64,000 bases of DNA from a virus, in IMG/VR virus record IMGVR_UViG_3300034112_000721, positions 1 to 64,000 of that record; one strand, 5' to 3'. The position numbers were made by a program, and so were the translations under genes. Of this stretch, positions 11,312 to 58,514 are shown piece after piece (position 1 is the first letter of the stretch; every line of letters begins with the position of its first letter). The notes beneath the pieces are model-generated. The model ran no database searches. It had not been told where the DNA came from and saw nothing but the letters and a program-made list of their open reading frames with translations.

Positions 11312-11325
11312 TCTTCCCTTTTTTT
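11294..11325. terminator. Bidirectional terminator between the convergent arms
   Basis: AAAGGGAAGA-AATAA-TCTTCCCTTT stem flanked by A-rich and T-rich tracts, between stop codons at 11311 (+) and 11324 (-). Confidence 0.85.
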
Positions 11326-14300
11326 ATCTAAAGAAACTTGATTCAAATGCTTTTACAGCCTGATCAGGATTGAGTGTGTTACCCGTTACACCCATTAATT
11401 TTAAGAAATAAGCCCAAGTTTTGCTATCACCTTTTTCCCAGGGACCAGTTTTTCTTTTATAATAATTTGCTTCATCATCAAAAACACCAACAACAAATTG
11501 TTTTATAAAACTAATAAACCTATCAATACTATTTGTTGCTGCTGACGGAGATTTAACAATCCTCCACAAGTCAGGCCAGCCAACTACAGGCAAATAAGCT
11601 GCAGTCTCACTTCTCATTCTCAAGGCTTGATATAACATATAATTATAACCCATAGATTTTTTAAGATCATCATCATCTCCTGCCATAGCATGTAATGCTG
11701 CAACAAGTGCATATAGTGCAAGTACAAAACTTACTTCATAAAGAGTTCTTTTGATCTGTGCTTTTTCAAATGAAGTATATCCACTCCAGTTTTTAATGAC
11801 ATTAAATTTAAAATCTCTGAGATCTCTAATAAATGTTTTCCAAAAAGTCACATAGTAACCCTCTGTTGGTGAACCAAGTTCAACATCCATACCTGCTCTC
11901 TTAAACCTTTTTTTGTATGACGGAATAAGATATTTTCTATACATTAATGCAAGTCTGCCTAGAGTGTATCTTTGAGCTACTGACTGATCAAAACTATTAT
12001 AAACACCATGCATTCTTTTGTTTAATGCATGCAATCTATTTTGTAAATCTAGCTTTTGTTTTTTAGTGTAACTTGTTTTATTATAGACATCTTCCATACC
12101 ATACTTTTTGTATGCCTGATATAATGTCATTTCTTTACCTGTTGCATTATCAGTTACCTTCTCTCTATCCATTAGCGCAAACATCATAGCTGTTTGAATT
12201 TCATATTCCCCAGCATGCATGTTTACAAACAGAGTATTAGTTCTGAAAAGCTTATTTGCTAATGAACCAGTTATTGTTTGACCATACATATCTTTAAACT
12301 CTCCTTGTAAAGGATCAAACTCTTCTATTATTTGTCCTTCTAGAGTTACTGCAACACCTTTTCCAAAGTCCTTAAGAAAATTACCTCCAATTAAATATAA
12401 ATTTGCTGCAGCTTTACCTTTTGCATAATTTTTAAAATCTATGAATTCTGCAGAAGCAGCCTCAAGAATAACTTGAATATTTGCTTGTAAGTTATTTGCT
12501 ACACCCTTCATAAGATCAGCAGCCAGAGTTGTTAATGCTGAGTAAGACATGATTGTATCAGAGATTTTTGAAATATTATATCCAAATAAAGTTTCTTTCT
12601 TTCTCATCTCACCATACACAATCATATCTATAAAAGCATCTAGATGTAACTCAGAATATGGTGTACCATTTAAATTTATATAGCTTTCATAACCAAGTTT
12701 TTTTGCGACACTATCTAATATAGGTTTTCCTTCAGATGTTGTAGCTCTTATTTTTCTACCACCTATTATACTTTTAAGTAACTTAGTCTCTGAGTGAATA
12801 CCATTAAGTGCCTCAAAATTATTTACAGACTGACTAAATAATAAAACAGATCTTAATAAGTTAAGACTTGTTTCAGATGCGTCCATTGGTTCAATGTATC
12901 TAATTGGTATAAGTTTAACAGCACCCTCTCCAGAAAGTGTTGATGTCATAAACTCATAGTCATTTGCAGTAAATTGAAAAGCCTCTTTAAATTCTGTCTT
13001 ACCAGCTTTAATAATATTATCAATCATCCTCTCACCTTTTGTCTTTAAAACTGAAGGCAAGAAGTATCCTATCCTAGAAAACTCTGGTATTTTATCCTGC
13101 TGGCTAAAATATACATCAGTTAAAGCTTTGTGGTACTTACCTTTTGCGTTTTTGGGAACACCATTTTCATCATACAATGCAGACCATTTTCTAGATATAT
13201 ACTTATTAGATGGAGTTGATAGTTCTCTCATATATACTAAAGAACCATCAAGTTTTTCATATACAACAGATTTTACCCATTTATTATATTCATCTTCTGT
13301 AATTATCTTTCTCTTAAGCTGATTCTTCTTATAAGCAACTATTTCTTTTCTTTCTTCCTCTGAAATAGGTTGAGTATTTTCACTGTACCAATCTCTTTCA
13401 GCTGCAAGATATGCGGCCATGTCTTCACTCCCTCTTTGGGGTCTTTTACCAAGTTTTTTATAAAACTCTATTCTATCATTCTCAAACTTAACAATATCAT
13501 ATTTCTGAACAAATGCTGCTCTATCCATGAATATAACATTTCCACTTTCATCTTTCTTTACATTTCCATCTGCATCTCTAAGTGGAACTCTTAGTATTTC
13601 ATATAAACCCTCATTAAATTTTTTAGGATTATCTCTTGAACCAGGAGCAACCCTTTGATACTCATTAAATGCTTTTTGCAGTTCTCTTTGTATCTTAATA
13701 TCTTTCATTCTAGCATCTTCAAGCTCTGTCTTAACAGCTCTAGCAAATAAAGCTATTACACTGTCATTAGAACTTATAAGTGGAGTAAAGAGATAATCAA
13801 TCAATGATTCATCTCTTACTGCTTCTTTAAGAAATTTAATAAGATTAGCTTTATCTAGAGTAAAATTTTGCCACTCATTAATTTGATCCTGTAACTCTTT
13901 AGTTCTTTTAGCAATAAACTCAGGTTTATTTTTTGGATTATTCTTTACATCTTCTATTCTCTGCTTATATTTTTCAATTTGCTCAGAGATTTTTTCTTCT
14001 ATTGATGCAGGAGCATAATCTAAAAGAAAGTCTGCCATTAACTCAATACCCTGATTATTTACTTGTGATTTAATTCTATTTCTAGTATTTATTGCAAATG
14101 TCAATTTATCCTGGGCAGTTAATTGATCAGATGACTTTTTCATTATTTCCTCTACAGAACCTGAAAAATAATTATCTATATCTGATGCATCTATATCATC
14201 TAATATATTATAGTTATTTGCATATTCTAGTAATGCAACAAGTGAATCTATAGCTTCTTTTCTATTTATTCTATTATTCTGAATTCTTTTTAATACTTTA

Positions 14301-14695
14301 CCCATTAATTCATAGGCTTGATTTGCCTGATTATATGCGTACTCAACAAATGCATTTATAGATTCTAGATTCTCTAGTTCTGACATATTTTTTTGAAGCT
14401 TTTTAAGCTCATCAATTTTTTCAGACTTTAGAGTTGTTTCTGTTCTTTGCAGTATCTCAATTTTATTTTGAAGATATATTCTTAGTCTTTGTACTAAGTC
14501 TGAGAATGAGTCTGTTTTTTCTTCTGGCTCAAACTCTTCTTGTGCCATTTCTATATCATCAGTTTGTGGCTCTGATCCACCATCACCTTCTTGGTCATAC
14601 TCTGTTGTCCAGATTCTCATGGCCTCTTCTTCATTGCCATTAGCTCTGTTCATTGCATCTTTCCACTCTTTGCTATTTTTATTAGGACACGACAT
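11324..14695 (-). CDS. Large internal/ejected virion protein (~1123 aa)
   Basis: The likely start is the ATG at 14695, overlapping the upstream stop as TAATG (MSCPNKN...). Helical/coiled-coil, with a C-terminal hydrophobic segment VSFVLALYALVAALHAMAG. Last gene of the cargo cluster. Confidence 0.7.
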   Translation of the reverse strand: MSCPNKNSKEWKDAMNRANGNEEEAMRIWTTEYDQEGDGGSEPQTDDIEMAQEEFEPEEKTDSFSDLVQRLRIYLQNKIEILQRTETTLKSEKIDELKKLQKNMSELENLESINAFVEYAYNQANQAYELMGKVLKRIQNNRINRKEAIDSLVALLEYANNYNILDDIDASDIDNYFSGSVEEIMKKSSDQLTAQDKLTFAINTRNRIKSQVNNQGIELMADFLLDYAPASIEEKISEQIEKYKQRIEDVKNNPKNKPEFIAKRTKELQDQINEWQNFTLDKANLIKFLKEAVRDESLIDYLFTPLISSNDSVIALFARAVKTELEDARMKDIKIQRELQKAFNEYQRVAPGSRDNPKKFNEGLYEILRVPLRDADGNVKKDESGNVIFMDRAAFVQKYDIVKFENDRIEFYKKLGKRPQRGSEDMAAYLAAERDWYSENTQPISEEERKEIVAYKKNQLKRKIITEDEYNKWVKSVVYEKLDGSLVYMRELSTPSNKYISRKWSALYDENGVPKNAKGKYHKALTDVYFSQQDKIPEFSRIGYFLPSVLKTKGERMIDNIIKAGKTEFKEAFQFTANDYEFMTSTLSGEGAVKLIPIRYIEPMDASETSLNLLRSVLLFSQSVNNFEALNGIHSETKLLKSIIGGRKIRATTSEGKPILDSVAKKLGYESYINLNGTPYSELHLDAFIDMIVYGEMRKKETLFGYNISKISDTIMSYSALTTLAADLMKGVANNLQANIQVILEAASAEFIDFKNYAKGKAAANLYLIGGNFLKDFGKGVAVTLEGQIIEEFDPLQGEFKDMYGQTITGSLANKLFRTNTLFVNMHAGEYEIQTAMMFALMDREKVTDNATGKEMTLYQAYKKYGMEDVYNKTSYTKKQKLDLQNRLHALNKRMHGVYNSFDQSVAQRYTLGRLALMYRKYLIPSYKKRFKRAGMDVELGSPTEGYYVTFWKTFIRDLRDFKFNVIKNWSGYTSFEKAQIKRTLYEVSFVLALYALVAALHAMAGDDDDLKKSMGYNYMLYQALRMRSETAAYLPVVGWPDLWRIVKSPSAATNSIDRFISFIKQFVVGVFDDEANYYKRKTGPWEKGDSKTWAYFLKLMGVTGNTLNPDQAVKAFESSFFR

Positions 14696-17600
14696 TAGCA
14701 CAAATTTTTATTAATTATAATTCTAAGTTCATTTAGTTCCTCTTCACTATTTACATTCTCTGCACGATCTATTATATCATTTACATCTATACCTTTATTG
14801 GCTAGTACTAGATCTATTCTGTATTCTTTGATTTGACTGTTCAAAGTATTAATGAATTTTGTAATACTATCTTTTCCAACAGGTGTTTGTGGTAATATAT
14901 CAGAAACAATATTTCCAGTTGTAAGATCTATGTTACGAAGATATATACTACCTGTGTCAATATCAACTAGATTGTATAAATTATTCTCAGATAGAACATA
15001 TTTGTTAGTGCCTTCACTACTTTCATAGATGAATTCTTTTGGATAAACTCCATTTGTTCTTGCTAGTTCTTCATTGAATAGTCCTATGACAGGGTTATTT
15101 TCCGGGCTTAATCTCTGTTGTACAGTGGTCATTTGCTGGATCTTTCCTGCAGGTGTAATTCCAAAGACATACCTTGTAGCATCACCCTTTATAAAGTTCT
15201 GCATGAACCTATTGTTGTTTGTGTAGTCACTCCAGTTTTTAAATCCTTCTGCTTTAGCAAAGCTGTCCTTACTTCTTACAAAAGATTTGTTTGTCTTTTC
15301 GTTTGTGATTACTACCGAATTACCAACTACCCGTGCAATACCATAATATTTTATTTTTACTTGTTGTGTATCACCAGCAAGATATGTATCATCTGCAATA
15401 AGTTCTGTTCTAGTAGTAATTACTTTACTACCATCTAGTACTTTAGCGATGTTTGTATTTGATAGTGGTAACTGAGCTGTTGTTTTAGAAGCTACTGTTC
15501 CAGGTTCTTGTATTGTTTCAGCTTTTGTTTCTATTTGAATAGTAGGTTGAGTAGACAATATAGACTCTAATAATTTAAATTGTTCTTCTGATAATATATT
15601 TTTTAAATAATATCCAGCTTTTGGTGTTGCCATATAAAGTTCAGTAAGAACAGGTATAATCTCATCTTTATTACCTTTAGCTAATTCTCTTTTTAGATAA
15701 TTTCCACTATCTATACCGTAATATTCATTCTCATCTCTAGCAACTTCATCAAAAGCTTTTATTATTAACTCTACTTGCTTATCTGATAGATCAATGCCAG
15801 GATTATCAAAACTGTGAGCAGCTTCGTGTATTAATAAAGATTCTAATTTAAAATCTCTATATTTTTCGTCATTAAAAAATATTACATTAGTATTAGCAGG
15901 TAATCCTTTATACTCTAAAAAAGCATCTATATATTTTCTATACTTTGGATTTATTTGAAATCCATGTAAAATTGATTCTGGATTAAAAGGATTTTGACCT
16001 GAAGCTTTTCTTATTGATCTATAAAATTCTGAAAGATTATCAATATACTCCTTGGATCCCTCAACTCCACCTTTTCTATTATATATAGTATCTTGTAATA
16101 CCATATCATAAACTACAGAACCAAAAGAAGCAATAGCAGAAATATTTGCTTTATTAAATAGATCTTTATTTCTATCTATTATTCCTAAAATTGGTGTAGA
16201 GTTACCATATTTATCTAACAAAACTTTAATTTCTCCTACTGGTTGTACTGTAGGTTGAGTAGATATGGGTTCTGAAAATTTAAAGTCATAAGTAGAAGTT
16301 GTGTTTTCTAAAAATTCCCCTACTTTCAAGGGATTTTTTTGAATTGATTTTATTACTTTTCCATTTTCTATTATAACATTTATCACAGTACCGCCATCAT
16401 AACCTTTAATATTTAGAGTGACATTATAACCATTTTCTGTTTTTTCTATTTTTCTTATAGTACCTGTATTGGTTACTGTCTTATATTTTAATTTAGATGT
16501 CCGTGTAATGATGTCCCCTACTTTATTTAGTAATTGATTTTCAGACAGTCCAGGTGCTTGAGTAGGTTTAATGACTTCAAATTCTATTGCTGCAGCACCG
16601 TCTTTAAATCTATCTATTACATTTACATCTTCCGCTCTCCAACCTTCTTTATTCCAAGTTCCTTTAAATCCAGGTGTTCCTTTAGGATGAATAGCAGTTA
16701 CTCTAGCTAAAATATTTTTAGTTGTACCATCTGCTGATTTACCAAAGTGTTTGATTATATCTCCAACTTTAACAGCATACTTAGACATTTCACTTTCACT
16801 TCTTGTAGTTCTGGTTCTAAACCCAGCCTCTATCATATCTATAGAATGTGGATTTGCCCCAAGTGCTTTAATTACTTCAGAATTTGCAGTAACTGTAGAA
16901 CCAAAGGATTCTATTCCAGATACTTTGTTTTGTGGTATATCAGCTACAGTAGCTTGGGTAGGTTGTTGAAACTCTTCATCTTCAAAAGTTATTTCTGTTT
17001 CTTCTGCAGGCAATACTTTTGGTATATACTGAGAATACTCAGTATCTGTTACTGTAAAATCTATAAACCTTCTATTATTTGGATCTGTTATTTTATCTAA
17101 TACAAAATCATATGTTTTATTATTGTCATAGTTGTTCTTAAATAAATCTCCCGCAGCTTTCATTATCTTTAGATAATCATCCTGTGGAAGAACATTATCA
17201 AAACCATTAAGTGTTTTACCTACACCATGCTGATAAATCATTAATAGTGGGAACAACTTGAATATTCTACTGAGTCTCTCATTCTCTTCAGGACTTGTTT
17301 CAGTATTTTTTACTTTCTGAATCTTTGCATTGCCCAGTTGTTTTAATTCTGAAGCATAAAGAGTTGCTGTGTTACCATCTATTACATCTCTGTTAGTTAG
17401 AGTAAGAATGCTTTTATTTGCACCAGCTTCTACATATTTTCTTATCTGATCTATTATAGAGAATTGTCTTGACAATGTTGATCTGTGTTTGTCAATAGTT
17501 CTCATTACTAGGTCACTATAAGAATACTTCCCGGGATTTATAATTACACCAGGATTAAATGTATTAATTAAAGCAAACTGATTTAACTCATCACCTCTAA

Positions 17601-20600
17601 GACCTTTCTGAAATAGATTTTCTCTTTCAAGTACATATCTAATGTAACTTTCCTCTGTAGGAAATAGATCATTTTCATTTGAAGGAAATGCTTCTAAACC
17701 TTGTCTTTCTGTATAGCTTTCCGCACTTGTACTTGTATCCAAATATCTTTTATTAGTATAGTCCTCTCTTATTCTATTTTGATTAATTAAGAAAACACCA
17801 TCTTTTATAGTTACATCTGTGTCAATAGAATTATCTATTTTAACTTCTTGTTGTCTATACTTGTTTGGTATCATTACAAACTTACCATCCTCAAATACTG
17901 TATTAGACAAATAGTTTTGAAATACAAATGTTTTTAAACCTGATTTAAAATCTCTATTGAATCTAGTAAGACCTTCTTGTGTTGCTTTATATTTTTTTGA
18001 GTCAACTATTTTTTCAAGTTTGCTATTACCTTCATAGCCACCCATGGCATCCAACAAGAATCTATTTACTTTAGGTCCATTGATTAAATCCATCATTGGC
18101 ATAAAGATTTTCTCAATAATATCCTTATCACCAAATGATGCAATAATACTTTCTTCTAAAACACCCTTTGCAGTTTCTAAGTCAATCTTAGAGTTATCAA
18201 ATGCTAAATCAACATCTAACTCTCTTTTAATTGCTTCCTGTGGAGTCCTAAGATTTCTAACATCTGGTTTAGATAGATTCTTTAATGCATTTATACCCCT
18301 TAACTGGTTTTCTATTTCTACATAGTGAGCTAACATTGCAAGAGATTTTGTCAATTGTTCTGGAGATAGCTCACCCTTTTTCTGAATCATCTCAAACATA
18401 CTATTCTTGTCAAAACTTCCACGTCTTAAGACACCAGGTATATTTGATAAGAATGATGATACAGCATATACATTTTTATTTGAGGGTATGAAGTTTCTAT
18501 AAATTACTTGTGCTACTCCTTCTGCTTTAACTAAATTAAGATTTGGAGCTAATGTTGGTAATTGATTTATAAAATTACCTTTTGTAATTTTTTCAGAAAC
18601 TTTTTCTGGTGCATCTGTAACAGGATTCTTTCTAAAATATTCTATAGTAAGTTCAGTACTATCAGAAAGTGATTTAATTCTGTCTAATATAAATCTCTCT
18701 TTATATTTATCAAATACTTGTTTTGCAGATTCATATTTAAGAGCAGGAGCTAGTTCTGGTGCTACACCAGAAGCTCTTCCAAAAACTCCACCTTTGAGTC
18801 TTTGATTTTCTGTATACTCTCTAATTAATGGATTAGATATAAAATAAACTGCATCTTCAGGACTAACCCCAGCTTCAGTGAGATATAAAAACACAGGAAG
18901 TGCTTGAACATTACCCTGAATATAGAATATCCAAGGATTGGTTTCAACATCCACAGTACCATTTAAAGCTTGTGAAAATATCTCAGCTATTTTATAAATA
19001 TTATCATTAGTGTAAATATTTGACAAAGAGATATGTCCATCTATTTCATTATGTGGCAAAAATAATCTTACATCAAATACTGCCTTACTTTTCTTACTCT
19101 CTACATACCTTCCATATTTCTTTTTATATTCTGCCGGTTTATATTTCTTAGGCATCTTAGCCCCTATAGAAGTATATAATGGATTTAATGCATTTTGATT
19201 TGCTACAATACCAAGTCCCCGCTTACCTTCCAAGTTTTGAGCATGCTTTTCTACATTTGTTAAAGGCTCAAATATTGATGTTGGAGATGCATACTTAGTA
19301 CCCTTTTTAGAAACATTTGGTTTCTCATCATTTACTTTAGCATACTTATCTCTTGTACTTACAAGATCTTGTAATTTAATTGCAATGTCTTCTAGGATTG
19401 ATGTGTCATTAGGAGTTACTAGTGAGGCATAGTTTTCTTCTATCTCTAATATACTTTTGATAGTTTCAATAAACTCATTCTCTGCTGCTTTCTTTTGCGT
19501 ACTAATAACATCCTTTGGATTTTTTTCCTGGTTCTCTAATGCACTTACTTCTTTAAAGAAATTTTGATTAGAGATACTTGATCTAACATAACTACCATCT
19601 TTATTTATATTTGGAAAGAATGTAGTTAACTTATCAACGTCAAAGTCAGATCCTGATTTTGCAACTATTTCTGTTGGTGGAATAATCATGTTTACTGCAG
19701 AAGGATCTAAGAATTCATAGACTTCCATAAATTCCATAGAGTTTAGACCTTGTACTGGTATTCTTACTGCAGTTAATGTAACAGACTTTCTATTGTCAGC
19801 AATATCTAACCAAGCATCTTCCTTAATCATTGCATTTAACCTATCAATAGTCTTGATTGGTTGACCATCTAAATGTTGAAGATTTAATAAATTAAAGAAA
19901 TCACCTTGTAATGTAATGGCAACTTTCATTGATAATGTCTTACCATCTTTACCTTTAGTATAGAAAGGTAAACCATTAGTTCCCAAATATTTCTTGCGTG
20001 CAGCTTCAAGTTCCTCTTTAGACAAGTTTGCAAACTTGTTTCCCTGAGTAACATCCCAGGTTCCATTCCACATACTATTTGCTACCTGTACAAGTGCATC
20101 ACCGTTTACTTTTTGCCTAACAAGTCTTTTCTCAATAAGAGACATTACTATATTCTCTATAGTTTCTGTATCTAAGAAATATGATAGATCATACTGCAAT
20201 GTTCCATCAGAATTAGTTTTGAGTTGATCTATTAAATGTTGAGGATAGTCTTTGGCTTTTAAGTTAGTTTGAATTAGTTTTAAAAATTTAGAAGGGTTAC
20301 CAATATAAGTTCCAGATTCATCTTTTCTGTATCCTATTTCATTCTCTAATTCTTTTCTTACTAATTCATTATAGAAATTAACTAGTGATTCATATTTATT
20401 ACCAAGTTCTTTTGCTTTATCAGATACATACTGACCATTTTCCTTTAATCCTTCTAATATTAATTTTCTTAACTGTGTTGAGAATATTACTTTACCCTTA
20501 GATTTAGATGGTACAGATGTTGCTTCTTTAATAAATGCTGCATTTATTCTGTTATTTGTAAAAGTCACACTTTCTTTTAGTGCTTTTCCTCCATCTTCAA

Positions 20601-23600: not shown

Positions 23601-26600
23601 CTTGGTCTTTATATAATTCTCCTTTAACTCTTTGATCTCCTTCAGTTGCAAGATCTAAGTTATTATAATCTTCTATCTGTGTTGCTAGAAAAATATATTT
23701 ATGGTCTCCATTTTTTGACCTAATAATTGCAGAAGCATTATCTTCTAAATCCTTTATTGTACTAAATGAAGTAAATGGTTTTTCTGGTGCTATCTTAAGT
23801 CTTGATTTTATTTCATCAATTTTTTCTATAAACTTAAGTCTAGCAATTTGATAAGCTACTTTTCTATTATTTAAATCAGTAATAATCTTTGTAGTACCAG
23901 CTTTATTATCCTTTCCACTTGATTTCTCTCTTTGATACTGCTCATCTATTATATCAGAGATAACAGAGTCTATTGACTCTACTACATCATTTGTATCTTT
24001 CTGATTTAATGCAATTTCATTTTTATTCTCTGTCTGTGTAATTCCCCTATTAAGAATATCAAACATTACATTATCAATACTAGGTGTGTAGATGTTTAAT
24101 AACTCGGGATTATTACTTGCAAGATACAAGTTTTTAAAAAGCTCACCTGCTACTCCTTCTGACTCAACATCATACTGTTGTAAGTTATCAGATATACTTG
24201 TTGTTTTACCAAACAACTTTCTTAAGAAGTTAAGTATTCTTCTAAATAAAGAATTTCTTTTAGGAGAACTTGGCTTTGTTTTTTGATTTAGTGCATATGA
24301 TCTAAAATCTTCTGCAAGAATTTCTTCTAATTGCAAGAAAGAATAATTCTTATACTTTGGATTACTCTTTCTTAGTTCTTCATACAAAGCTATTTTTTCT
24401 TCTCTAGTTAAAAACAACTGAGAGAAGGCATGCCAAGCTTCATGATAAGCATCAACTACTGAACCTCCTGTAGCTTCATTAATTTGTATTGCACCCAGTG
24501 CTCCAGTATATTGTCCAGCAATTAATGTTGATCCAGCCGTAACAAATCTTGCATAAGCATCAGAGTTTACTATATTAATCATCTGTAACTCACCAAGATA
24601 TTTCTTTAGTGGTGATTTATCATACCAACTGATAGCATTACTAATTTGTTCAGCTGTTACTCCTTCTGGTAAGCTTGTTTTTCTATCTAATTTAAACTGA
24701 TTAAAAAGATTAGATATTTCAGAATCATCTGATGGATTTCTAACATTCTTAGGATTTAAAGCTTCTGATTGTTGTGTATCTGATTCTTCTTCTGAAACAG
24801 TCTTTGGTGCTTCTGTAACCTCATCTAATTCTTCTATTTCTTCTTGTTCTGCAACATATTCTTCTTGCATTGGAACAGCTGGTCTAGAAGTTTCTTTACC
24901 AAAATCTGTTTCTTGAAGATTTCCATATTTTATTATATTATTTCCTTCTATTTTAATTGCAGAAATATTATTTGGATATCCAAAGCCATTTTCTATTTCA
25001 ATAGGATCTATAATAAGTTCTAATGTTTCACCTATCTGAGGCTGATTTAGAGACTTCATTAGCTTGTGCTCTCCTTGTTGACCTTCAATTTCTACAGTTA
25101 TATATGTAGAAAATGTCCCTGTCTTAGGATCACCCTCTGTAGTATATTCTTTTACAGTAGCTAATACTTTTTGATCTGGTGAGTTTTTTATTACCTCAAC
25201 TAAGTTATCCTTAAACTTTCTTATTTCAGATCTATCATCTTTTTCTACAGTTTCTTTTGCTTCATTTACTTGATCTACAAAAGTATCATCAAGAGTAAAA
25301 TTAATACTAGAATTATATAATGGAATTATTTTACCATCTTTTACTTTTATTCTTGCATTTTGTTCTTGTAAAAAATCTGAATAGCTTCTCAATACAAATT
25401 GACCATCTTGATAATCTAAATATTCCTCACCAACTAATCTTGGTCTATACACAATTTTAGAACTAAAAGGCTCTCCATTTTTACCGGTGGCACCTTTCAT
25501 AAAAATATCATAGATATCTTTTTCAGCAGTACTAGATTTAAGGTCTATAGTTTTTGGTTCCTTATTTTGTGCTGCTTTACTTGCATCTGCTTTTGCTTCA
25601 TTTAATGTAAATGGTGCATATGAAAAAATAAGTTCTCCATCTACAAGATTTAAATTATGTCTTTGGAAGCTTGCTGGAATAGAAATTTTTTGATCAGTAA
25701 AAAACTGATGATAAAATCTAATCTTTTGTTCATTTGATATATTGGGGTTTGTTAATACAGCGGCAACCTTTCTTGCTGTATCTTCATTTATATTTGCTCT
25801 ATCTACCTCATATATCTCATTATTAATTGTTACATATGACCCACCACTAGGAATGTTTTCAAACTTAATGGGTGTTACATTTAAACTATTAATAATTGCT
25901 TTTCTTTGCTCTTCAGTAAAGTAGCTTGATAGATTGTTAATCTTTATATTGTTAAGTATTTTAAAACTAAATACTCCGCGTGTTGCTCCAGTAATAGTTA
26001 ACAGTTTTGTTTTCTTAGTACTAATTAACTCTTGTCTAAAGTCATAAAGTTTTTTAAACTCTTCTTGTTGTTGTTTTTCAACTTCTTTAACATACTCTGC
26101 AAAAGACATTCCTTTTGCATTTTCTAAATTTTCTTTAGACCCATATAACAAAGAAATTTCATCATTTACAATATCCTCTGGAGAAATTATCTGATCTTCT
26201 ATACCATAAATATCAGTAACTCTATACTTACCATTCTCTAGCCTTACATCTCTTAGCATCTGATAGACTATTCTACCACCCTCATCTTTTGTACTTACTC
26301 TTCCATCTTTTGTAAAATAAACAAAGGCTCCAGATGCATCAGATAGAACTAAAGCAAATTGTTCTGAAACTGGTGTTACTTTACTTTCACCACCTTGATT
26401 AATTATTGCATTTTGTTTTGCTATTATTGCATTTGAATAATTTGTTCTATCATTTGATGAAAGTCTATCTAAAGGAATAACTTTTAGTTTTAAATTTACT
26501 CCATCAATACTTGCATTATCTAATAAGTCTATATCAGCTGTATTAATACTTAATCTTGACACAGTATTAATAGCAGTTATTTTATCAGAATCTGTTACTT

Positions 26601-27126: not shown

Positions 27127-27127
27127 T

Positions 27128-30100
27128 TTAACAAATCTTTTTATTGTATAATTCTTCTTCTAGTGTATCTAAGTCTTTATCTTTTACTGCATCAATGATA
27201 TTATCAATATCTGCATTAGTTAAACTATCTGCTGCTGTAATGCTCTCAATAATTTTTGATTTAGCTTCTGGAGTAATTTCAATTTTCTCTACAGCAGACT
27301 TAGATTTTGCTTCCTCTTGTGTCATGATTTTACCGTTTAGATTATCAAATTTAACACTTTTTTTCTCATTAGAATTAGCAACTTCAAAAGTAATATTATC
27401 ACCTTCCATACTTGTTATTGTAATGAGTGAGCCAGCAGGAATATCATCTATTGGTTGTATAGTTACATACTGTGTCTCTTGTATGTCATTCATCTGATCT
27501 TTTATCTCAGATTTAAACTCTTCTGTTAAGGATTTGATTCTGCTTTTTGCAGCATCATTTATAACTTTTACTTCATAAGCTGTTAGATCCGAAACATCTT
27601 TTAACATCTCTTTGATTTCATCTACAGTAGACTTATTTATTCTCGAAATAATGTCAGCACCTTTCTCACTAATAACACTTTCCTTAACAGGTCTTTCTGC
27701 TAAACTTAGTATCTCTCCTAGTGAGATCTCTGATACAACATCACCTTTAGATTTATCTATAGTTTCATCAAGTTTGTTTTTATTTGTAGAGCTTGTATTC
27801 TTAGTATTAGTAGGTTTTGGTCCATTAGAATTCTTATCAGATAATTTATTTGCAATTGATTCTTTTGATACCTCATTAAGAATATCATTTAAGTATCTAA
27901 CCTCTTTGTTATAGCTCTTTAAACTCTCTTGTAATGAGTTAATTCTTTCTATTTCTAGCTCTTTAACTTTAGGAGTTAGTTCTGCTACATCCATAGTAGC
28001 TGAAAGTCTTGATCTCAGATTCTTAAACTGTTTTACAATAGAATTAAAATCTTCTAGTGTTGCATTCTCTAAGTTATCTACTGCTTCTTCTAATCTTTCA
28101 ACTTCTTCTTTAGAAAGTGGTTTATAATTAGCATCCGGTATTAATTGTAATTGCTGTCCTACCTGAGAGTCTAATTTTTTAATGCCATCAATATACTCTT
28201 TTAAAAGTTTTTTAGTTCTAAGTATTGTATCATTAATTGTCTTAATAGATCTATTTAAAGAATTTATTTTCTTTTTTATTTCTGCTATTTTTATTTTAAT
28301 GTCAGACCTACTAAACAATGCTAAGTCTTCTGTATCTAAAATATTTTGATAATAGTCTATTTGATCATTAAGATCCTTTACCTGTGCAGTAAGTATTTCT
28401 TTTTCTTTTCTAAGATCCTCTAATCTTCCTACTACACCTGCAATTACAACAAACTCTCTTCTAAACTGATCTCTAACATCTTGATTTTTAATAGATGTTT
28501 TTCCGCGACCTTTTCTAAATTTAGATTTAAGATACTGACCAGTTACTTGATCTAATGCAGTAATAGAGTTTATTATATCTGTAAGTTCATCTGCAGTCAA
28601 CTCAATAGATGCATTACCGATAGTATCTAAATAGTTAAGGATGTCATTGATCTTTTTTAAATCTGTATCTAATTTTTGTTGTCTACTTCTTAGAGTTTGT
28701 ATTTTATCTAGGATTGCAATTTTATTTTCTTTTGCTAACCTTCTTTGTTGTGCTGCTATATCTTCTACTTCTTGTTCAATTGTTGCTTGTTCTTCATCTA
28801 CTACTTCTTCAATAACAGGTTCTCCAGATGCTGTTCTCATTGGAATAATGTCATTGATTTTTATTTGAAGAGTTTCTCCATCTACAGTTGTTTGATTAGG
28901 ATCTACTGGAGCTACAATCTTACCAGGAACTAATATTGGACTAGCAGATTCAATTGTTTCTATTCTTCCTGTAGCTGAATCAGTTGATATCTGTAATGGT
29001 AATAAAACAGTTTTTGGATTAATACCAGTCATGTTATATAACATATTCTTAGCTGCTACAAGCTCAAGTCCATAACTTTCTTTTTTAGAGACATCACTTG
29101 TTTCATCATCATATTCTTCCCACTTATTTACATCACCCATTTTTACAAGGACAATAGTTGTATTACCCTCTCTATCTACTAGTAAGAAATTAATTTCTCC
29201 TGCAACACCTGCTGGAATATCAAATACTGTAAGCTTGGCTGGAATAATAACTATGTCACCTAAATTAGCTTTCTCTTTTAGTTCGGCCAATATAGATTTA
29301 CTACCAAATAAACTATCAAAAGCTTGTTGACTTAATAATGTAGGGTCATTTTTAACCTCTTTATCTGCTAAGAAATTTTTAATCTGATCTGTAACGTAAG
29401 TTTCAGTTTCTGCTTTTTGTTCAAACACTCTTTCATTTACTAATGATAAAACATCATTAAGTGAAATTCTTCTTTGTACTTTTTCTTCGGCTGAAACAGC
29501 TCCTTTAGATTTATCATAAAGTTCTTTACTATCCCAAATAGTTTTAGTAGCTGTATCAAAATATTGACCTAGTTGAAGTTCTTTTCCCCAAGTATCTTTT
29601 GTTCTTTGTATTTCTTGATCAATTGCTTTTAATGCATCTTTACTATAACTCTTCTTAGAACTTTCTAGAGTACTAAGTTTATCCTCAAGAGTTTGTGGTT
29701 TATACCATAAAAGATCTTGTTGTTTAAACTTATTTGCAATTTCTATAGACTTTCTTTGAGCTTGTTCTGCAGTAAGATTACTGCCTAATACAATACGTAC
29801 TCCTTTAACACCACCAAAGTTTGTATCTGATTCTTTAAGTTCATTAGCTATTTTTTTATTTTCTTCAGATAAACTATCATATGCAATTTCAATATAATCT
29901 TGTCCACCAGCTTTTCCTTGTATAGATTCTATCCAAGAACCTGTAGTTTGAATATTTTTATCCCAGAAAATTTCTGAAGCTGGAACTAATGGTCCTGCTA
30001 CAACATCTGCTATATCTTCTTTTTTAGAAATAGGTACATTAAAAGTTCGAAAACCTGTTTTAGGTCCTTCAGTACTAACTTGACTTGTAGGTTTACCTTC

Positions 30101-33100
30101 TAAAGCAGCTAGTTCTGCATCATATTTAGCATTGATTTTATCAGCATTTGGAATTAATGGAACAGATATTGTATCAAAGATGTTATCTCCATCTATAATC
30201 CATTCTTGAGCATCTTTTTCTTTATTACCTGTAAGCTCTCTTGCATTAAGAGATTCTGTTTTATTAACTATATATAAAGTAGGATTATTTTTTCCATATC
30301 TTAATGCATATGTAAGAGATGTTATAGGAGTAGCTGAAAAACTAAAGTTTCCTTTAGGAATTCTAACACCCATAGATTCTGCCACTCTACGCATGTCTAC
30401 ATTGGAATATTCACCAGTTTGAAAAAACTGTTTATCAAATTTATCAAACTTAGGACCCCCATGAAATAATACATTATCTGTCTTCCAACCCTTATCTTTT
30501 ATTGCTTTATCAATTTGATCTTTTAAAGCATTTTTATTATTATCAAAAGCTTTATTTAACTCCTCTTGTCTTCTTCTTTCTATATCAGCTTTCTTAGCTT
30601 CTATGTCTTCAGTTGTTGTAGTTGGTTCTAAAGAACTTTGTGCTGAATCATATTTAGAAGTAATTTCTTTACCAAGTTTTTCTACATTACTTCTTAATGT
30701 TTTCCTAGCATCAGCATTGTTTATTGCAGGAGTATATGACAACTTAGAATTAATATAATCCTCTACTTTATCTGCTAAAGTTGATAAAGGTTTTGAAGTT
30801 GCATTTGGATCTCCATCATTTGTAAATGCAGACGGATCTGTTCCATAAAAGTTATTTAATTCTTCAGATATTGACTTTACTATATCTGCTGTTTCTTTGC
30901 CCCAATATCTTTCATAATAAGTCTCCATATCAGACTTATCTGTTTTATTTAACCAGCCATCTTTTCCAATACCAAAAAATGGATACCAACCTGGAACTAA
31001 GCCTTTACCTGCTTGTCCTGTTGTTAAATAAAAAGGTACAATAGTTCCATTTATATTTACAAGAACTTTGGCTCTATCTGTAGATGTAACTACATTCCAA
31101 TAATTACCATCTATAGTGAAACCTTCTAATTTAAAGTTAGGATTTGAAAATATTATTTCTTCAATATTATTTAATCCTTTTCTACCTTTAGTACTAGTAA
31201 CAGGAGCTTCTGTAGTTTCACCTGTTAGTGCTTTAAGTTTTTCTGATAACTCATTATAAGTATCTTCTGTAAAACCAGGAAGATTTGCTTTCTTAAGTTC
31301 AGATATAAAATCATCAACAGAATTATTCTTTGCTAATGTATTATTATATATCTGAGCTATTTGATCTCTTTGTTTTTCTTGATACTTCTCACTTATTACC
31401 CTTTCAATTTCTTTATTGACTTTCTCAAGTTTGTTACCATTAACAGTATATTGATTTGTTGTTTCATCAAATGTAATATCACCTTGCTGATCAATTACTT
31501 TAGAAACCTCTTTAATTACTTTTGATCTCTTTGGAGATTCTTTAAAGTTTAATTTATAATTTAAATACTTATTGGCAAGAGCAAGATTAAATTCTAGTAT
31601 TGCAAGATTTTCTCTTTCTTGATCTGTAAGATCTGTTTTGTCTTTTAGTTTCTTAATATCCGTTTCTATTTTCTTTATGTTAGCTTTAATATCCTTTATG
31701 TCAAGATTTTTAAAGTCCTGATCCTTACCTCTTACTTGCATAACAGGCGGCTCTACCTCATCTAATTGTTGAGCAGTTAACTTCTCTTTCATTTTGTTAT
31801 TATACTGCTCAATAACTTTTTCTGCTCTTGGATTATTTTGAATAAAATTATCTAACTCAGATAATAGTTTTTCATCAGATACTTCACTTAATTCATCAGC
31901 AAGACCTTCTGTATCTTCTACATATTGATTAAATGCATTCTCAAGTTGCTTTCTCAATGCTTCATCCATTAACTCAAACTTTGTATTTTTTGTAAATGGA
32001 ATAAATGTAGAAGCTTGTGTTAGTTTCTCAGATTGAGCTCTTGCCGTTAATTCTTGAATTGCATTTATTTTTTTCTCAGTAAATTCAGAATTTATTTTAT
32101 CTATAGCAGCTTTATCTGCAACTAATTCTAATGTATATTTCTTTCCAACTTCAAAACCTTGCTTAACATTATTCTTATTGACTAGTTCACCTGTTGGACC
32201 ATTATATCTTAAACCTTCTTTTGATTTGTACAAAATAAGTTCTCTTACTCTTAATCCTGATTTATATTTTACCTCCGCGTATTGTCCAACATTCATCTGA
32301 AGATCTACATCATTAATTGTTGCTTTTGTCCCCTTTGGTATATTAATAGGTCCTTTTTCTACACGTTCTTCTGTTTTAGCTAAAGCATCTAATGCAGCTT
32401 TTCTTTCAGCTTCCAATCTTGCCAAAGTAAGATTTAAAGCAGTATTATCTGCAGATCTCCCCTTTGGATTTAACTTTCTTACAGCAGCAGCTCTTTCAAA
32501 GAATATAGCATAATTGTCATATTCTGGATGACCTTCTTTAATAACTACCTTTCTTGTGTCATCATAAAATTCAGTAGGTATAGTTGCTGTTCTTAAAAAT
32601 TCTGCAGCTTCATCTTCACTAATATATACATTTCTATCTGCTAATTCATTTAGCAATGCGTTAAGCTCTATATTATCAAGTTGTTGATTAACTATATTAG
32701 AGAAGTAGTCTCTTCTATTATTGTAAAGATTACTCATCCAAAGATAATTTCTTTGGACATGATCCATAAAATCTCTTGGATTATTTAATACGTTTACATA
32801 GTTTGCAAGAATAGAAGATTCTTTACCCAACTTGTAATTATCTAATATCATTTCAAAAGCAGCCTCAGCCTCTTCTGATAAATAAATATCTCCTGTAGAA
32901 TTTGCAATAGCTTTTAAATACTCTTTGTATGCATTTTCCAAATTAGCTTCAACTTCTAATCTATTTTCATTAGTTCTTTCACCAACTCTATTTGCTCTAT
33001 TTATTTCTTTTCTGAGTTGAACTTCTGCTTCATCTATAGAAATGTTATTTTCATCAGCTATATTTTGTAGCTCACCTGATTCTTTAAACTTTTCTATGAT

Positions 33101-35740
33101 TTCATTTACTTGATTATTTTCAAATTTATCATAGTTTTTATATGCCTCTGATAATGCCTCAAGTGCTTTTAACTTATTTTGTTTCTTTCTAAGTTCTTCT
33201 GGTGATAATACATTTTTTTGAGCTTCTATTTCTTCTTTTAAAATATTACGCTCATTAAACATTCTACTTGGTTCTAATAATAACTGAATCTCAGAGTCAG
33301 TCATTTTAGATAATGGTTTAGATGATTTAATTTTAGTACTAATATCCTTCATTCTCTTTACAGCATCTTGATAAGAAGACCCCATAAAGATTGCATTCAT
33401 TTTTGCTACTTCCCAAGCCTGACTAAATAACTGTGCCTGTTTATATGCATCTGTTCCTTTTTCATACTGTGAAATATCTATAGGATTAACATATTTATCA
33501 TTTATTTTATCATAGTTAGTTTTGATTTCATTCATTCTTTGAACTATACCATCTATTCTTGATTGATATTTTAATCCCTCTCCTTTGGGAATATTTTGAA
33601 CAGCATCTTCAAATTCCTCTGGCGTTAAGTCTCTAAATGATTCAATTCTTTCTTTAAACATATCAAGTGTTCCAGATCTCAATGCTGTTACAACTTGTGA
33701 TACTAAAGCAAAATCTTTAGCATCTAATACATTTTTTCTTCCACCCTCCTGAATAATCTTTGTAAGTATTTCTTGATTACCAAGATTAAATAATTTAGAA
33801 TCAAAAAATTCTCCTGGATTCTCATTATATAATTTAGTAAGTGTTTCCGCAATACTCTCACCAAATGCATTCTTTTTATTTTTATAATCTGCATAGTGTT
33901 CTGGTCTAAACATTCTGTTATAACCATTAGATGCCCAGTTTGGAAGATTATTAATTGGACTAGCAAAAGCACCCATTATAAATCCAGTAGCAAATGTTTC
34001 AAATCCTTGTTTTGTAAATGGATTTTGATTTGCCCATGCATCTTTAAAGTAAGATGCTTTACTTCTACTTGCATCTGCAATAGCACCTTTAGAATATAAA
34101 TGAGCTTTAACAGCATCTGAGTTAAAAGTATTTACATAATAATTACCTAGAGCTTCAGATATTGTTTCCTGAAAGTTTTCTTGTAAACCTTCTCCAATAT
34201 TTGCTTTAAAATATTTTCCTAAACCAACAACAGATTTTGCAGAAAGATTTTTAAAACCAGCTTTAAAACCATCCTCTCTAAGTCTTTTTATACTTCCCCT
34301 TATACCATTTTCTACATATGTAAACTCACCCTTTGCAAGTTTTTTACCTTCTTCTTTTATTGTTTTAAAAACTACCTTACCTCTTTCAAGATTTAAAATC
34401 TCTTTAGTTCTTGCACCCAAAATACTTGCTGTTCCCTTTCCACCTGCAATACTTGGAAATACAAGTTTGTTAGATAAATAAATAACTCCTGTATTCCAAC
34501 CTAAATTCTCTAGACCAGCTTTTTCAGATTGTACCATCATATCATACATCTGTTTGTTAGATGGAGCCTGCCCAGTATTTTTGTAATGCAAATTATATAA
34601 ATCATAGTAGACTTTATTTTGTTGCATACCACCTTCTAGTTTAGCTTCAGTAACAGCAGCATTTATAAATTTCATGTCTCTATAAAAGCCGCCAGCAGTC
34701 TTTGAAAGTTTTGCAAGAGATGTTAAATTACCAAAGGCTTGAGCCTTTCTAATATCATTCATTGCATCAAATGTATTACCCAATGGATTTATAAATTTTC
34801 CAATTGGTGTATTTACCGCTTTCCAAAAGTTTCTTGCTGTTTGACTTGATTCTAATGTTTTTACTGCCGTGCCAAAAGCTTTATCTAAGTTTCCAAATAG
34901 TTTTCCAACTTTAGCAATCTTTGCAACTGCAGAAGCATCAGCAGTAGCCTCAAGAGCACCTGCTGCAGGTATACCAGCTCCAGTAGCCACTAATCCAGCT
35001 TCTAGTGCTTTTGTTGCTGCTTGTTCAGCTATTGTTTCAATAATAATACCGGCTGATAATCCAAAAGAGTTAAGAGCATTGTTTATAAATCCAAATGCTC
35101 CTCCCTTAGTTGACATACCTATATTAGAATACTTTTCAAAGTCTTCTGCATTATTTAAATCAATAGAAGTAAAATCTCCCTGAAGCATATCAAGAGTTCC
35201 TTGTGCACCAGATTTTATTCCTAACCAAAGACCCGGTAACAATGAATGATTTACCATTCTTGTAAAATCATTCCACTTAGTGGTTCTTTCATTATATATT
35301 GCTTCATTATCTCTAAATGGTGAGAAGCCTACCTCATCCATTTTTTTAGACCCATATGCCGCATATCTTTTATAATAGTTATTACCATCTGGTCCTGCGT
35401 TATATCCAAATATTCTTGAATACTCATTTTTGTCCTGATTGGTTTGAAATATGGATCTCATATAAGAATCTGCAGCTTGAGCAGATTCTTCAAAAGACAC
35501 ATTCTTTTTTGGACCTGGTGGATTTGGAGGGTTACCTACAACATTATCTCTAATACTTCTTTGTGGATTTGTTAATGATCCATAATTAGGAATTACATTA
35601 GTTAACTTAACTTGATCTATATCTAATCTTTTAAACCCATAAGGATCTAAGTTAAGTGGATTAGTAACATCCATATTAAACTTACCAATAGATGGACCTA
35701 GTGGTGCAAGAGGGTCAAAGTTTGTATTATCTTGAGCCAT
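27128..35740 (-). CDS. Giant internal/ejected polyvalent protein (2870 aa)
   Basis: N-terminal Gly/Ala-rich amphipathic region with a GEGLQENFQE motif, long coiled coils, an ADP-ribosyltransferase-like insert (FHGG...F...FSFS) and a degenerate PD-(D/E)XK domain. Confidence 0.7.
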   Translation of the reverse strand: MAQDNTNFDPLAPLGPSIGKFNMDVTNPLNLDPYGFKRLDIDQVKLTNVIPNYGSLTNPQRSIRDNVVGNPPNPPGPKKNVSFEESAQAADSYMRSIFQTNQDKNEYSRIFGYNAGPDGNNYYKRYAAYGSKKMDEVGFSPFRDNEAIYNERTTKWNDFTRMVNHSLLPGLWLGIKSGAQGTLDMLQGDFTSIDLNNAEDFEKYSNIGMSTKGGAFGFINNALNSFGLSAGIIIETIAEQAATKALEAGLVATGAGIPAAGALEATADASAVAKIAKVGKLFGNLDKAFGTAVKTLESSQTARNFWKAVNTPIGKFINPLGNTFDAMNDIRKAQAFGNLTSLAKLSKTAGGFYRDMKFINAAVTEAKLEGGMQQNKVYYDLYNLHYKNTGQAPSNKQMYDMMVQSEKAGLENLGWNTGVIYLSNKLVFPSIAGGKGTASILGARTKEILNLERGKVVFKTIKEEGKKLAKGEFTYVENGIRGSIKRLREDGFKAGFKNLSAKSVVGLGKYFKANIGEGLQENFQETISEALGNYYVNTFNSDAVKAHLYSKGAIADASRSKASYFKDAWANQNPFTKQGFETFATGFIMGAFASPINNLPNWASNGYNRMFRPEHYADYKNKKNAFGESIAETLTKLYNENPGEFFDSKLFNLGNQEILTKIIQEGGRKNVLDAKDFALVSQVVTALRSGTLDMFKERIESFRDLTPEEFEDAVQNIPKGEGLKYQSRIDGIVQRMNEIKTNYDKINDKYVNPIDISQYEKGTDAYKQAQLFSQAWEVAKMNAIFMGSSYQDAVKRMKDISTKIKSSKPLSKMTDSEIQLLLEPSRMFNERNILKEEIEAQKNVLSPEELRKKQNKLKALEALSEAYKNYDKFENNQVNEIIEKFKESGELQNIADENNISIDEAEVQLRKEINRANRVGERTNENRLEVEANLENAYKEYLKAIANSTGDIYLSEEAEAAFEMILDNYKLGKESSILANYVNVLNNPRDFMDHVQRNYLWMSNLYNNRRDYFSNIVNQQLDNIELNALLNELADRNVYISEDEAAEFLRTATIPTEFYDDTRKVVIKEGHPEYDNYAIFFERAAAVRKLNPKGRSADNTALNLTLARLEAERKAALDALAKTEERVEKGPINIPKGTKATINDVDLQMNVGQYAEVKYKSGLRVRELILYKSKEGLRYNGPTGELVNKNNVKQGFEVGKKYTLELVADKAAIDKINSEFTEKKINAIQELTARAQSEKLTQASTFIPFTKNTKFELMDEALRKQLENAFNQYVEDTEGLADELSEVSDEKLLSELDNFIQNNPRAEKVIEQYNNKMKEKLTAQQLDEVEPPVMQVRGKDQDFKNLDIKDIKANIKKIETDIKKLKDKTDLTDQERENLAILEFNLALANKYLNYKLNFKESPKRSKVIKEVSKVIDQQGDITFDETTNQYTVNGNKLEKVNKEIERVISEKYQEKQRDQIAQIYNNTLAKNNSVDDFISELKKANLPGFTEDTYNELSEKLKALTGETTEAPVTSTKGRKGLNNIEEIIFSNPNFKLEGFTIDGNYWNVVTSTDRAKVLVNINGTIVPFYLTTGQAGKGLVPGWYPFFGIGKDGWLNKTDKSDMETYYERYWGKETADIVKSISEELNNFYGTDPSAFTNDGDPNATSKPLSTLADKVEDYINSKLSYTPAINNADARKTLRSNVEKLGKEITSKYDSAQSSLEPTTTTEDIEAKKADIERRRQEELNKAFDNNKNALKDQIDKAIKDKGWKTDNVLFHGGPKFDKFDKQFFQTGEYSNVDMRRVAESMGVRIPKGNFSFSATPITSLTYALRYGKNNPTLYIVNKTESLNARELTGNKEKDAQEWIIDGDNIFDTISVPLIPNADKINAKYDAELAALEGKPTSQVSTEGPKTGFRTFNVPISKKEDIADVVAGPLVPASEIFWDKNIQTTGSWIESIQGKAGGQDYIEIAYDSLSEENKKIANELKESDTNFGGVKGVRIVLGSNLTAEQAQRKSIEIANKFKQQDLLWYKPQTLEDKLSTLESSKKSYSKDALKAIDQEIQRTKDTWGKELQLGQYFDTATKTIWDSKELYDKSKGAVSAEEKVQRRISLNDVLSLVNERVFEQKAETETYVTDQIKNFLADKEVKNDPTLLSQQAFDSLFGSKSILAELKEKANLGDIVIIPAKLTVFDIPAGVAGEINFLLVDREGNTTIVLVKMGDVNKWEEYDDETSDVSKKESYGLELVAAKNMLYNMTGINPKTVLLPLQISTDSATGRIETIESASPILVPGKIVAPVDPNQTTVDGETLQIKINDIIPMRTASGEPVIEEVVDEEQATIEQEVEDIAAQQRRLAKENKIAILDKIQTLRSRQQKLDTDLKKINDILNYLDTIGNASIELTADELTDIINSITALDQVTGQYLKSKFRKGRGKTSIKNQDVRDQFRREFVVIAGVVGRLEDLRKEKEILTAQVKDLNDQIDYYQNILDTEDLALFSRSDIKIKIAEIKKKINSLNRSIKTINDTILRTKKLLKEYIDGIKKLDSQVGQQLQLIPDANYKPLSKEEVERLEEAVDNLENATLEDFNSIVKQFKNLRSRLSATMDVAELTPKVKELEIERINSLQESLKSYNKEVRYLNDILNEVSKESIANKLSDKNSNGPKPTNTKNTSSTNKNKLDETIDKSKGDVVSEISLGEILSLAERPVKESVISEKGADIISRINKSTVDEIKEMLKDVSDLTAYEVKVINDAAKSRIKSLTEEFKSEIKDQMNDIQETQYVTIQPIDDIPAGSLITITSMEGDNITFEVANSNEKKSVKFDNLNGKIMTQEEAKSKSAVEKIEITPEAKSKIIESITAADSLTNADIDNIIDAVKDKDLDTLEEELYNKKIC

Positions 35741-38787: not shown

Positions 38788-38830
38788 AATATATTAAAAT
38801 ATTTTAAGTTTAATAAACCTTAAAAGTTTA
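38788..38830 (-). promoter_or_regulatory. Putative phage late promoter plus palindromic operator (copy 1)
   Basis: AATATATTAAAATAT at 38788 and TAAACCT-TAA-AAGTTTA at 38814, with the same spacing as the copy at 45679. Confidence 0.6.
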
Positions 38831-45678: not shown

Positions 45679-45721
45679 AATATACTAAAAATAAATTTAA
45701 TTAGTAAACCTATTAAGTTTA
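45679..45721 (-). promoter_or_regulatory. Putative phage late promoter plus palindromic operator (copy 2)
   Basis: AATATACTAAAAATAAAT at 45679-45696 and TAAACCT-ATT-AAGTTTA at 45705-45721. Confidence 0.65.
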
Positions 45722-58398: not shown

Positions 58399-58410
58399 AC
58401 TATACTATTT

Positions 58411-58428
58411 AATATACTAAAAATAAAT
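58411..58428 (-). promoter_or_regulatory. Putative late promoter core (copy 3)
   Basis: AATATACTAAAAATAAAT is an exact 18-bp match to 45679-45696. It lies just after a terminator and 13 bp before an ATG. Confidence 0.65.
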
Positions 58429-58449
58429 GACTTTAACAAATATAGCAAT

Positions 58450-58480
58450 AAAAGCAAAACCCCCGCGAGTGCAGGGGTTC
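58450..58480 (-). terminator. Rho-independent terminator
   Basis: Minus-strand AACCCCTGC-ACTC-GCGGGGGTT followed by TTGCTTTT. Confidence 0.8.
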
Positions 58481-58514
58481 TACCAGTTGTTACAGAAACC
58501 AACAAACTGCAACT

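Follow-up and report, generated by a model that had tools for sequence, protein, structure and literature searches.

Three giant proteins that a freshwater crAss-like phage is predicted to eject into its host carry cysteine only at the ends where one protein faces the next in gene order. The DNA analyzed, hereafter the window, comprises positions 1–64,000 of IMG/VR record IMGVR_UViG_3300034112_000721, and the three proteins are encoded by consecutive minus-strand genes, here termed A, B, and C, with each start taken as the first methionine of the open frame (Table 1). Among their 8136 residues there are just four cysteines, all at ends that face a neighboring protein; internal cysteines are absent from A, B, and C, as are cysteines at the N terminus of A and the C terminus of C. 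A first-pass annotation of the DNA had claimed this arrangement, with four cysteines in about 8100 amino acids (aa), all at the two gene junctions, and cysteine-free outer ends of the array, and recounting confirms both parts of the claim at the positions given. For comparison, the other proteins of the window, including those of the replication and tail genes, contain 0.5–8.5% cysteine, and the chance of four cysteines among 8135 residues landing no more than five residues from the four junction-facing ends is about 4e-11.

Judged by comparison among related sequences, the cysteine pair is a protein-level, selected feature tied to protein borders, and it behaves as a substitute for a peptide bond. 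On balance, we lean toward the reading that the pairs form a reducible head-to-tail tether, most likely a disulfide, which would turn separate gene products into one threadable N-to-C chain that mimics a polyprotein.

Pairing across junctions, splits, and fusions

The terminal cysteines are kept in relatives down to about 22–30% identity. Homologs of B that share 34–93% identity in the searched part have cysteine at residue 4–5 and at the C-terminal end; taken more broadly, the N-terminal cysteine stands at residue 3–5 in all full-length homologs and the C-terminal one within the last 1–10 residues in all relatives, and a single internal cysteine occurs among the 13 B proteins listed, the first of which is the window's own. 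All 10 homologs of A have one cysteine, the last residue. In the C family, cysteine is found at residue 2–6 in 43 of 43 homologs (36 with no other cysteine, seven with one more), and C3 and P4 are invariant in alignment A1. A wider search for the C family covered 1.84 billion representatives and returned 2414 relatives, the best 150 of which were read. Among those 150, we counted as representatives with the size of a separate C protein the 120, no two more than 50% identical, that start with methionine and span 1000–3000 aa: cysteine falls within the first eight residues in 116, and 91 of these have no other.

Pairing was read from 157 related IMG/VR loci, retrieved with alignments of the C and B families, by reading the chain of plus-strand open reading frames (ORFs) in each and removing duplicates. 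Both sides of the border carry cysteine at 183 distinct junctions inside the chain; at 178 of these it lies in the last five residues of the upstream protein and the first eight of the downstream protein, and at the other five the upstream cysteine is found at positions −8 to −10. Neither side carries one at 57 junctions, every one of which joins A to the protein just upstream (about 320–1190 aa, many cut by the end of the locus). Junctions with cysteine on one side only number zero of 240, so the paired conservation proposed as a check by the first-pass annotation is what the loci display. Because the related loci are not phylogenetically independent, fewer independent events lie behind these counts than the figures suggest; even so, the rule is followed by at least six distinct architectures. 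Nor is the position of the cysteine rigid, ranging from the last residue to −10 at C termini and from residue 2 to residue 8 at N termini.

Retention at the ends is accompanied by a purge elsewhere. The 404 distinct proteins of these chains (803,135 residues) contain 53 internal cysteines (0.0066%), as against 201 at N termini and 217 at C termini, and small neighboring ORFs contain 1.8% cysteine. In gut crassviruses the purge is less strict, with 31 internal cysteines in about 36,600 residues, roughly 13 times the environmental rate.

Where the block is divided into more genes, additional pairs appear. Many loci encode one or two extra proteins of 242–782 aa between B and C, each of which has exactly two cysteines: the first close to the N terminus, mostly at residue 3, and the second at the C terminus or close to it; in locus L066 there are four links in a row. 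The inserted proteins consist of an N-terminal module of ~170 aa, which elsewhere forms the start of the C protein, and a C-terminal module of ~130 aa, whose homolog is the final 130 residues of B in every case where C comes immediately after B. Similarly, a mobile domain of ~400 aa, for which Pfam gives no match, occurs within the C-terminal part of B (L116, L148), within the N-terminal part of C (L113, L115, L125), or as a standalone protein (L109, L066, L054), and proteins that hold it internally lack cysteine at the sites that are borders elsewhere. The border between A and B shifts too: a zincin-like domain belongs to B in the window and to gp47, the A protein, in crAss001, and the corresponding region of the window's B matches the C-terminal part of gp47.

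Fusion has the opposite effect. In cr50_1, A and B are fused into a protein of 4774 aa with no cysteine at the fusion point, and the pair is kept at the border with C; in crAss002 and p-crAssphage, B and C are fused and only the pair between A and B is kept. Fourteen A+B+C polyproteins of 3953–5388 aa have no terminal cysteine, and nine of the 14 have no cysteine at all. These polyproteins contain an A-like start, a DFDxD motif (13 of 14), one or two HExxH motifs, and a C region. The first-pass annotation had reasoned that a gene fusion should lose both cysteines, and this is borne out by the A+B protein of cr50_1 and by the 14 polyproteins. Some systems consist of two proteins. Whether divided as A and B+C (crAss002, p-crAssphage) or as A+B and C (cr50_1, cr118_1, Flavobacterium phage Fpv3), each protein has a single terminal cysteine, so pairing is possible only between the two proteins.

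The cysteine rule is useful for annotation, since true protein ends, chain order, and the membership of giant ORFs in the ejected set can be read from it. One gene start in a reference genome may be read in this light: that of crAss002 gp33 (L166 15945-16041) was probably annotated 32 codons too early, and initiation at Met33 would give MSCTPS, in keeping with the N-terminal rule. Cys 3119 of the same protein, in the context DDPNC, may be a remnant of a tail motif at the fused B–C site.

Identity of the cargo block and related systems

By homology, the three genes make up the RNA-polymerase cargo block of a crAss-like phage from fresh water, equivalent to gp67-gp66-gp65 of Cellulophaga phage phi14:2 and gp47-gp50-gp49 of Bacteroides phage crAss001, because each protein matches its counterpart: B matches phi14:2 gp66 (g066; BLASTP E 9e-22) and crAss001 gp50 (4e-10), C matches crAss001 gp49 (1e-48) and phi14:2 g065 (1e-25), and A matches phi14:2 g067 (1.6e-6) and crAss001 gp47 (1.4e-4), with other members of the A family reaching 4e-21 against gp47. 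The label of virion RNA polymerase (vRNAP) that B had been given is supported by the match to gp66 and by an invariant SGxDFDVD motif, in which D2494, D2496, and D2498 do not vary in alignment A2; a search with the pattern SG[GSA]D[FY]D[VI]D yielded 405 relatives. B also has two HExxH motifs (Table 1), and HEFAH or HEFGH lies at a place comparable to the second in most fused polyproteins. Because B and most of these polyproteins have two such motifs (HEAFH near 1300 and HEFAH near 3400 in the latter), there may be two zincin-like domains per cargo block. Other searches were less forthcoming: PHROGs and Pfam gave nothing meaningful for A, B, or C, a sequence search of the PDB found no relevant match for any of them and no solved chain for B, and BLASTP of B and of members of the A and C families gave no match to N4 gp50.

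The counterparts of these proteins in phi14:2 and crAss001 have been found in virions by mass spectrometry and are described in the literature as leaving through the tail in a partly unfolded state, and from this homology, together with their position beside virion genes, we infer that A, B, and C are likewise carried in the virion and ejected. The surrounding genes fit, with a cysteine-free protein of 1645 aa that contains a lytic transglycosylase domain and with virion structural proteins. DNA of the phage is present in 20 lake-water metagenome runs, an oxic setting; the sample that yielded the record may be any one of these.

Table 1. Coordinates of the cargo genes, their cysteine codons, the protein bordering the chain, and the motifs of B in the window
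Feature	Position	Strand	Details
Gene A	27128-35740	minus	2870 aa; first link; sole Cys is the last residue; N terminus without Cys
C-terminal Cys codon of A (TGT)	27131-27133	minus	residue 2870
Gene B	14695-27126	minus	4143 aa; virion-type two-barrel RNA polymerase; middle link; Cys at residue 5 and last residue only
Cys5 codon of B (TGT)	27112-27114	minus	N terminus MAITC
C-terminal Cys codon of B (TGC)	14698-14700	minus	residue 4143
Gene C	11324-14695	minus	1123 aa; last link; sole Cys is residue 3; C terminus without Cys
Cys3 codon of C (TGT)	14687-14689	minus	N terminus MSCPNKNSKEW
Upstream protein	35727-38765	minus	1012 aa; no Cys; outer border of the chain; junction with A Cys-free on both sides
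DFDVD, catalytic motif of RNA polymerase	19633-19647	minus	B residues 2494-2498
HEAWH, zincin-like HExxH motif	24430-24444	minus	B residues 895-899; invariant in alignment A2
HEAAH, second HExxH motif	15814-15828	minus	B residues 3767-3771

Several features of the proteins stand apart from the question of their ends. Among P0014-P0021 and P0001-P0005, the close relatives of A, which are 95–100% identical over the last 600 residues, have lengths between 2462 and 3263 aa, and those of B between 4143 and 4836 aa. Because near relatives differ so much in length, some large segments of both proteins are, on this comparison, gained or lost rapidly; tandem repeats were considered as the cause and do not account for the differences in the window. 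Several homologs of B (P0006, P0007, P0009-P0011, P0013) carry helicase domains of RecD/PIF1 type in their C-terminal parts, which Pfam does not find in the window's B. In cr108_1 (L163 20441-20732), the polymerase gene is annotated in two pieces that are split at the catalytic motif (...AGSD, a gap of 290 nucleotides, then LYDID), which suggests an intron or other insertion.

The same rule of terminal cysteines holds in phi14:2, crAss001, cr108_1, cr118_1, cr50_1, crAss002, p-crAssphage, and Fpv3. The homologous proteins of phi14:2 stand in the same order: the sole cysteine of g067 is its last residue, that of g065 is Cys 3, and g066 has Cys 3 and Cys 2179 of 2180 residues. The corresponding cysteines of crAss001 are Cys 2339 of 2341 residues in gp47 and Cys 5 in gp49, each the only one of its protein, and Cys 5 and Cys 2404 in gp50, which also has one internal cysteine. 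Unlike their counterparts in these two phages, the window proteins are much longer, and the zincin-like domain falls on the other side of the A–B border. The crystal structure of the vRNAP of phi14:2, gp66, was determined by Drobysheva et al. (10.1101/2020.03.07.982082) with recombinant protein purified and crystallized in dithiothreitol. The same preprint noted that the RNA-polymerase block of some crassviruses takes the form of a single giant polyprotein (10.1101/2020.03.07.982082). That form shares the domain string of the window's block, including the zincin-like motif, the DFDxD motif, and the region of the C family, but its link is a peptide bond, terminal cysteines are missing and most members have no cysteine at all, and separation of the parts would need proteolysis rather than reduction.

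Suppression of cysteine in ejected proteins has been published for the Schitoviridae, or N4-like phages, with a content of 0.00075% in homologs of DEV gp71 (PMC11445570). Their ejection operon (N4 gp50/gp51/gp52; DEV gp71/gp72/gp73) resembles the crass block in pairing a giant virion RNA polymerase with companions that are nearly free of cysteine, and we count none in N4 gp50, gp51, or gp52. It differs in that its polymerase, which is another enzyme, consists of one chain and that no terminal cysteines are present, so that what the crass phages add is the retained pair. The first-pass annotation had stated that no description of such a mechanism was known. For the terminal pairs this stands: our literature searches found no description of terminal cysteines or cargo disulfides in crassviruses, and neither the phi14:2 polymerase preprint nor the crAss001 atlas nor the 2026 N4 paper mentions paired terminal cysteines. 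It does not stand for cysteine depletion, already published for ejected proteins (PMC11445570), and only the terminal pairs are new.

A proposed reducible tether weighed against its rivals

In the tether that we propose, the C-terminal cysteine of A would bond Cys5 of B, and the C-terminal cysteine of B would bond Cys3 of C, in the assembled particle, most likely through disulfides formed once the virion meets oxidizing lake water. This would join about 8100 residues into an unbranched chain that runs from N to C throughout and takes the place of the single polyprotein of other lineages. Because the links would sit at the extreme ends, such a chain could slip through a tight passage like a thread, with every protein drawing its successor along in a set order and in a 1:1:1 ratio. 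The purge of internal cysteines would prevent wrong cross-links, and the reducing cytoplasm of the host would open the links and free the three proteins. A similar logic is familiar from the inter-chain disulfides of AB-type toxins and from capsid disulfides opened on entry, where a covalent link persists outside the cell and is undone by the reducing cytosol once translocation is complete. The analogy would extend only to that logic: several gene products would here be joined end to end in order by terminal cysteines, no sequence relationship exists, and the bond in the phage is a proposal.

An unbranched N-to-C chain fits what has been put forward for crAss001, whose cargo is proposed to exit partly unfolded through constrictions under 50 Å, with gp45 leaving from N to C, and whose cargo proteins are suggested to set the order of extrusion by interacting with one another (PMC10172136). 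Crassvirus virions do carry inter-protein disulfides, which in crAss001 stabilize the tail and portal vertex; these, however, join ring, hub, and vertex proteins, and none has been reported for the cargo, which was unresolved in the structure (PMC10172136). A disulfide is the likeliest chemistry for the link because of these bonds in the crAss001 tail, because no second conserved metal ligand lies near the cysteines, and because a reducible link would open in the cytoplasm.

Structure prediction gives a partial view of the ends. In an AlphaFold2 model of a 307-aa link protein (predicted local distance difference test score 74), Cys3 is part of a coil ahead of the first helix, the final helix is directly followed by the last cysteine, and a disordered acidic linker separates two modules; Foldseek found no match to the model in the PDB at E <= 0.001. 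Prediction of a complex between residues 3984–4143 of B and 1–150 of C from the single sequences gave a score of 0.14, where the mark was 0.34, and counts neither for nor against a contact. A likeness between the cysteine-ending tails of A and B had been remarked on in the first-pass annotation. It holds in outline, as both have a short acidic helix followed by K-x-hydrophobic-C, but profile similarity is not significant (hhalign probability 0.3%), and homology of the two tails is not supported. Comparison of head profiles returned short N-terminal motif matches only.

Several points weigh against a tether. The bond is itself a proposal, as are its chemistry, its site of formation, and the copy numbers. 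Because the cytoplasm in which virions assemble is reducing, a hypothetical non-covalent docking of the ends would have to come before any bond. Tails and heads vary widely in sequence, the tails falling into at least four unrelated types, which leaves no common docking motif; that particular tail types go with particular head types downstream could simply be due to neighboring DNA being inherited together. The cysteine pairs are also retained in gut crassviruses, whose habitat is free of oxygen and which tolerate more internal cysteine. Finally, four of the 120 C representatives with the size of a separate protein have no cysteine at all, with their gene starts and gene neighbors outside the comparison.

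The pairing rule is silent on the type of bond, and the same neighbors might instead share a metal ion (Zn, Fe, or Cu) or another thiol-based link. Such a bridge could form in the reducing cytoplasm during assembly, and the two HExxH motifs of B imply that metal binding does occur in these proteins. Two thiolates, however, do not fill the usual site of four ligands, and profiles anchored on the cysteines reveal no His, Asp, Glu, or second Cys at a fixed spacing common to the tail or head types. We regard this alternative as unlikely, if the best placed of those considered.

The timing of the bond might also differ. The DEV study cites an earlier suggestion that ejection proteins are free of cysteine as they cross a periplasm that catalyzes disulfide formation (PMC11445570), and terminal cysteines could exploit that very chemistry: thiols would remain free in the virion, and thiol oxidases of the host periplasm would tie the proteins together in a trans-envelope structure after ejection. 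Against this, the RNA polymerase must reach the cytoplasm, N4-like phages manage without any cysteine, and the cysteine-free fused polyproteins fit a link that is needed before or during threading rather than after it. We consider the scheme rather improbable.

Topology is another matter, as equal numbers of N-terminal and C-terminal cysteines would fit just as well if B and each inserted protein closed on itself and A paired with C, or if each cysteine were anchored to the portal or inner capsid; the association of tails with the next heads could in that case be explained by DNA linkage alone. Yet the two-protein systems allow only pairing of neighbors, and a protein of 4000 residues that is closed into a ring cannot be threaded as one strand. 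Attachment to other virion parts, in turn, leaves unexplained why the N terminus of A and the C terminus of C lack cysteine and why complete fusions lose it. We would give either arrangement only a slim chance.

It is conceivable that the terminal cysteines bridge nothing, but are separate sites of processing, modification, or recognition that look paired through joint inheritance of modules. Tail and head modules are indeed mobile units that travel between carrier proteins. Such an account, which strikes us as highly improbable, predicts neither the absence of one-sided junctions among 240 nor the loss of both cysteines on fusion. Two specific versions were rejected. Split inteins and protein trans-splicing find no place, as Pfam detects no Hint, intein, or protease-site family in A, B, or C (E up to 0.1 for Hint and intein families), and there is no room for intein halves because the cysteines sit 0–10 residues from the ends. 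The N-terminal cysteine of bacterial lipoproteins is no better a model, since the cysteine at residue 2–8 just follows the start methionine with no hydrophobic leader, and no signal peptide or lipobox precedes it where it stands at residue 3–6.

Least likely of all, and assigned next to no probability, is the idea that a nucleotide signal at the junction, translational coupling for instance, gave rise to the cysteine codons as a side effect: both junctions in the window are tight, with a single spare base between A and B and the start of C (ATG, 14693-14695) overlapping the stop of B as TAATG, but the position of the cysteine varies, flanking residues differ between tail types, and the idea is refuted by crAss001, where gp47 (A) lies on the strand opposite to gp50 and gp49, far from gp50 (B), and still ends in cysteine, with both cysteines of the pair kept, which marks the feature as one of the protein.

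Surrounding genes and wider meaning

The genes around the cargo block offer observations of their own. Upstream of A, in a run of cysteine-poor genes, an 843-aa protein (38828-41359, minus strand) without a Pfam or PHROG match contains four cysteines arranged as CxC...CxC (residues 556, 558, 576, and 578), a cluster that could be a small metal-binding knuckle. The cysteine-free 1645-aa protein (45719-50656, minus strand), whose lytic transglycosylase (SLT) domain spans about residues 1379–1431, is probably an ejected cell-wall hydrolase, to judge from its sequence; residues 1138–1279 give a below-cutoff match to the ART-PolyVal family of ADP-ribosyltransferases. The virion genes upstream of the cargo at 56109-63831 (minus strand) run rich in cysteine (3–8.5%), one 621-aa protein having 53; because this is the opposite of the cargo, it suggests heavy use of disulfides or metal in outer parts of the tail. 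At the edge of the replication module, a gene at 254-679 (plus strand) encodes a SegE-like GIY-YIG protein (Pfam E 8e-21) that is likely a homing endonuclease. Thioredoxin-like proteins are encoded in the replication modules of p-crAssphage (L168 28706-29973) and cr108_1 (L163 31684-31953); Pfam finds none among the window genes from 254 to 50656, and genes beyond 50656 were scanned with PHROGs only.

Taken across the Crassvirales and Fpv-type Flavobacterium phages, a wider proposal can be framed, which we advance tentatively and rate at slightly less than an even chance. The cargo would be stitched by terminal disulfides into a pseudo-polyprotein that is threaded through the tail from N to C in fixed order; reduction in the cytoplasm would release, and perhaps switch on, the virion RNA polymerase; and gene fusion and the Cys–Cys stitch would be interchangeable evolutionary solutions to the same end.

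No phages of the human gut are more abundant than crassviruses, and the way in which they package and eject cargo of megadaltons, a giant RNA polymerase included, is an open question (PMC10172136; PMC13434306). If the tether is real, a covalent, reducible chain would explain the order of ejection, the stoichiometry of the cargo, and the separation of its proteins inside the host, and would account as well for the use of one polyprotein in some lineages and of three to five genes in others.

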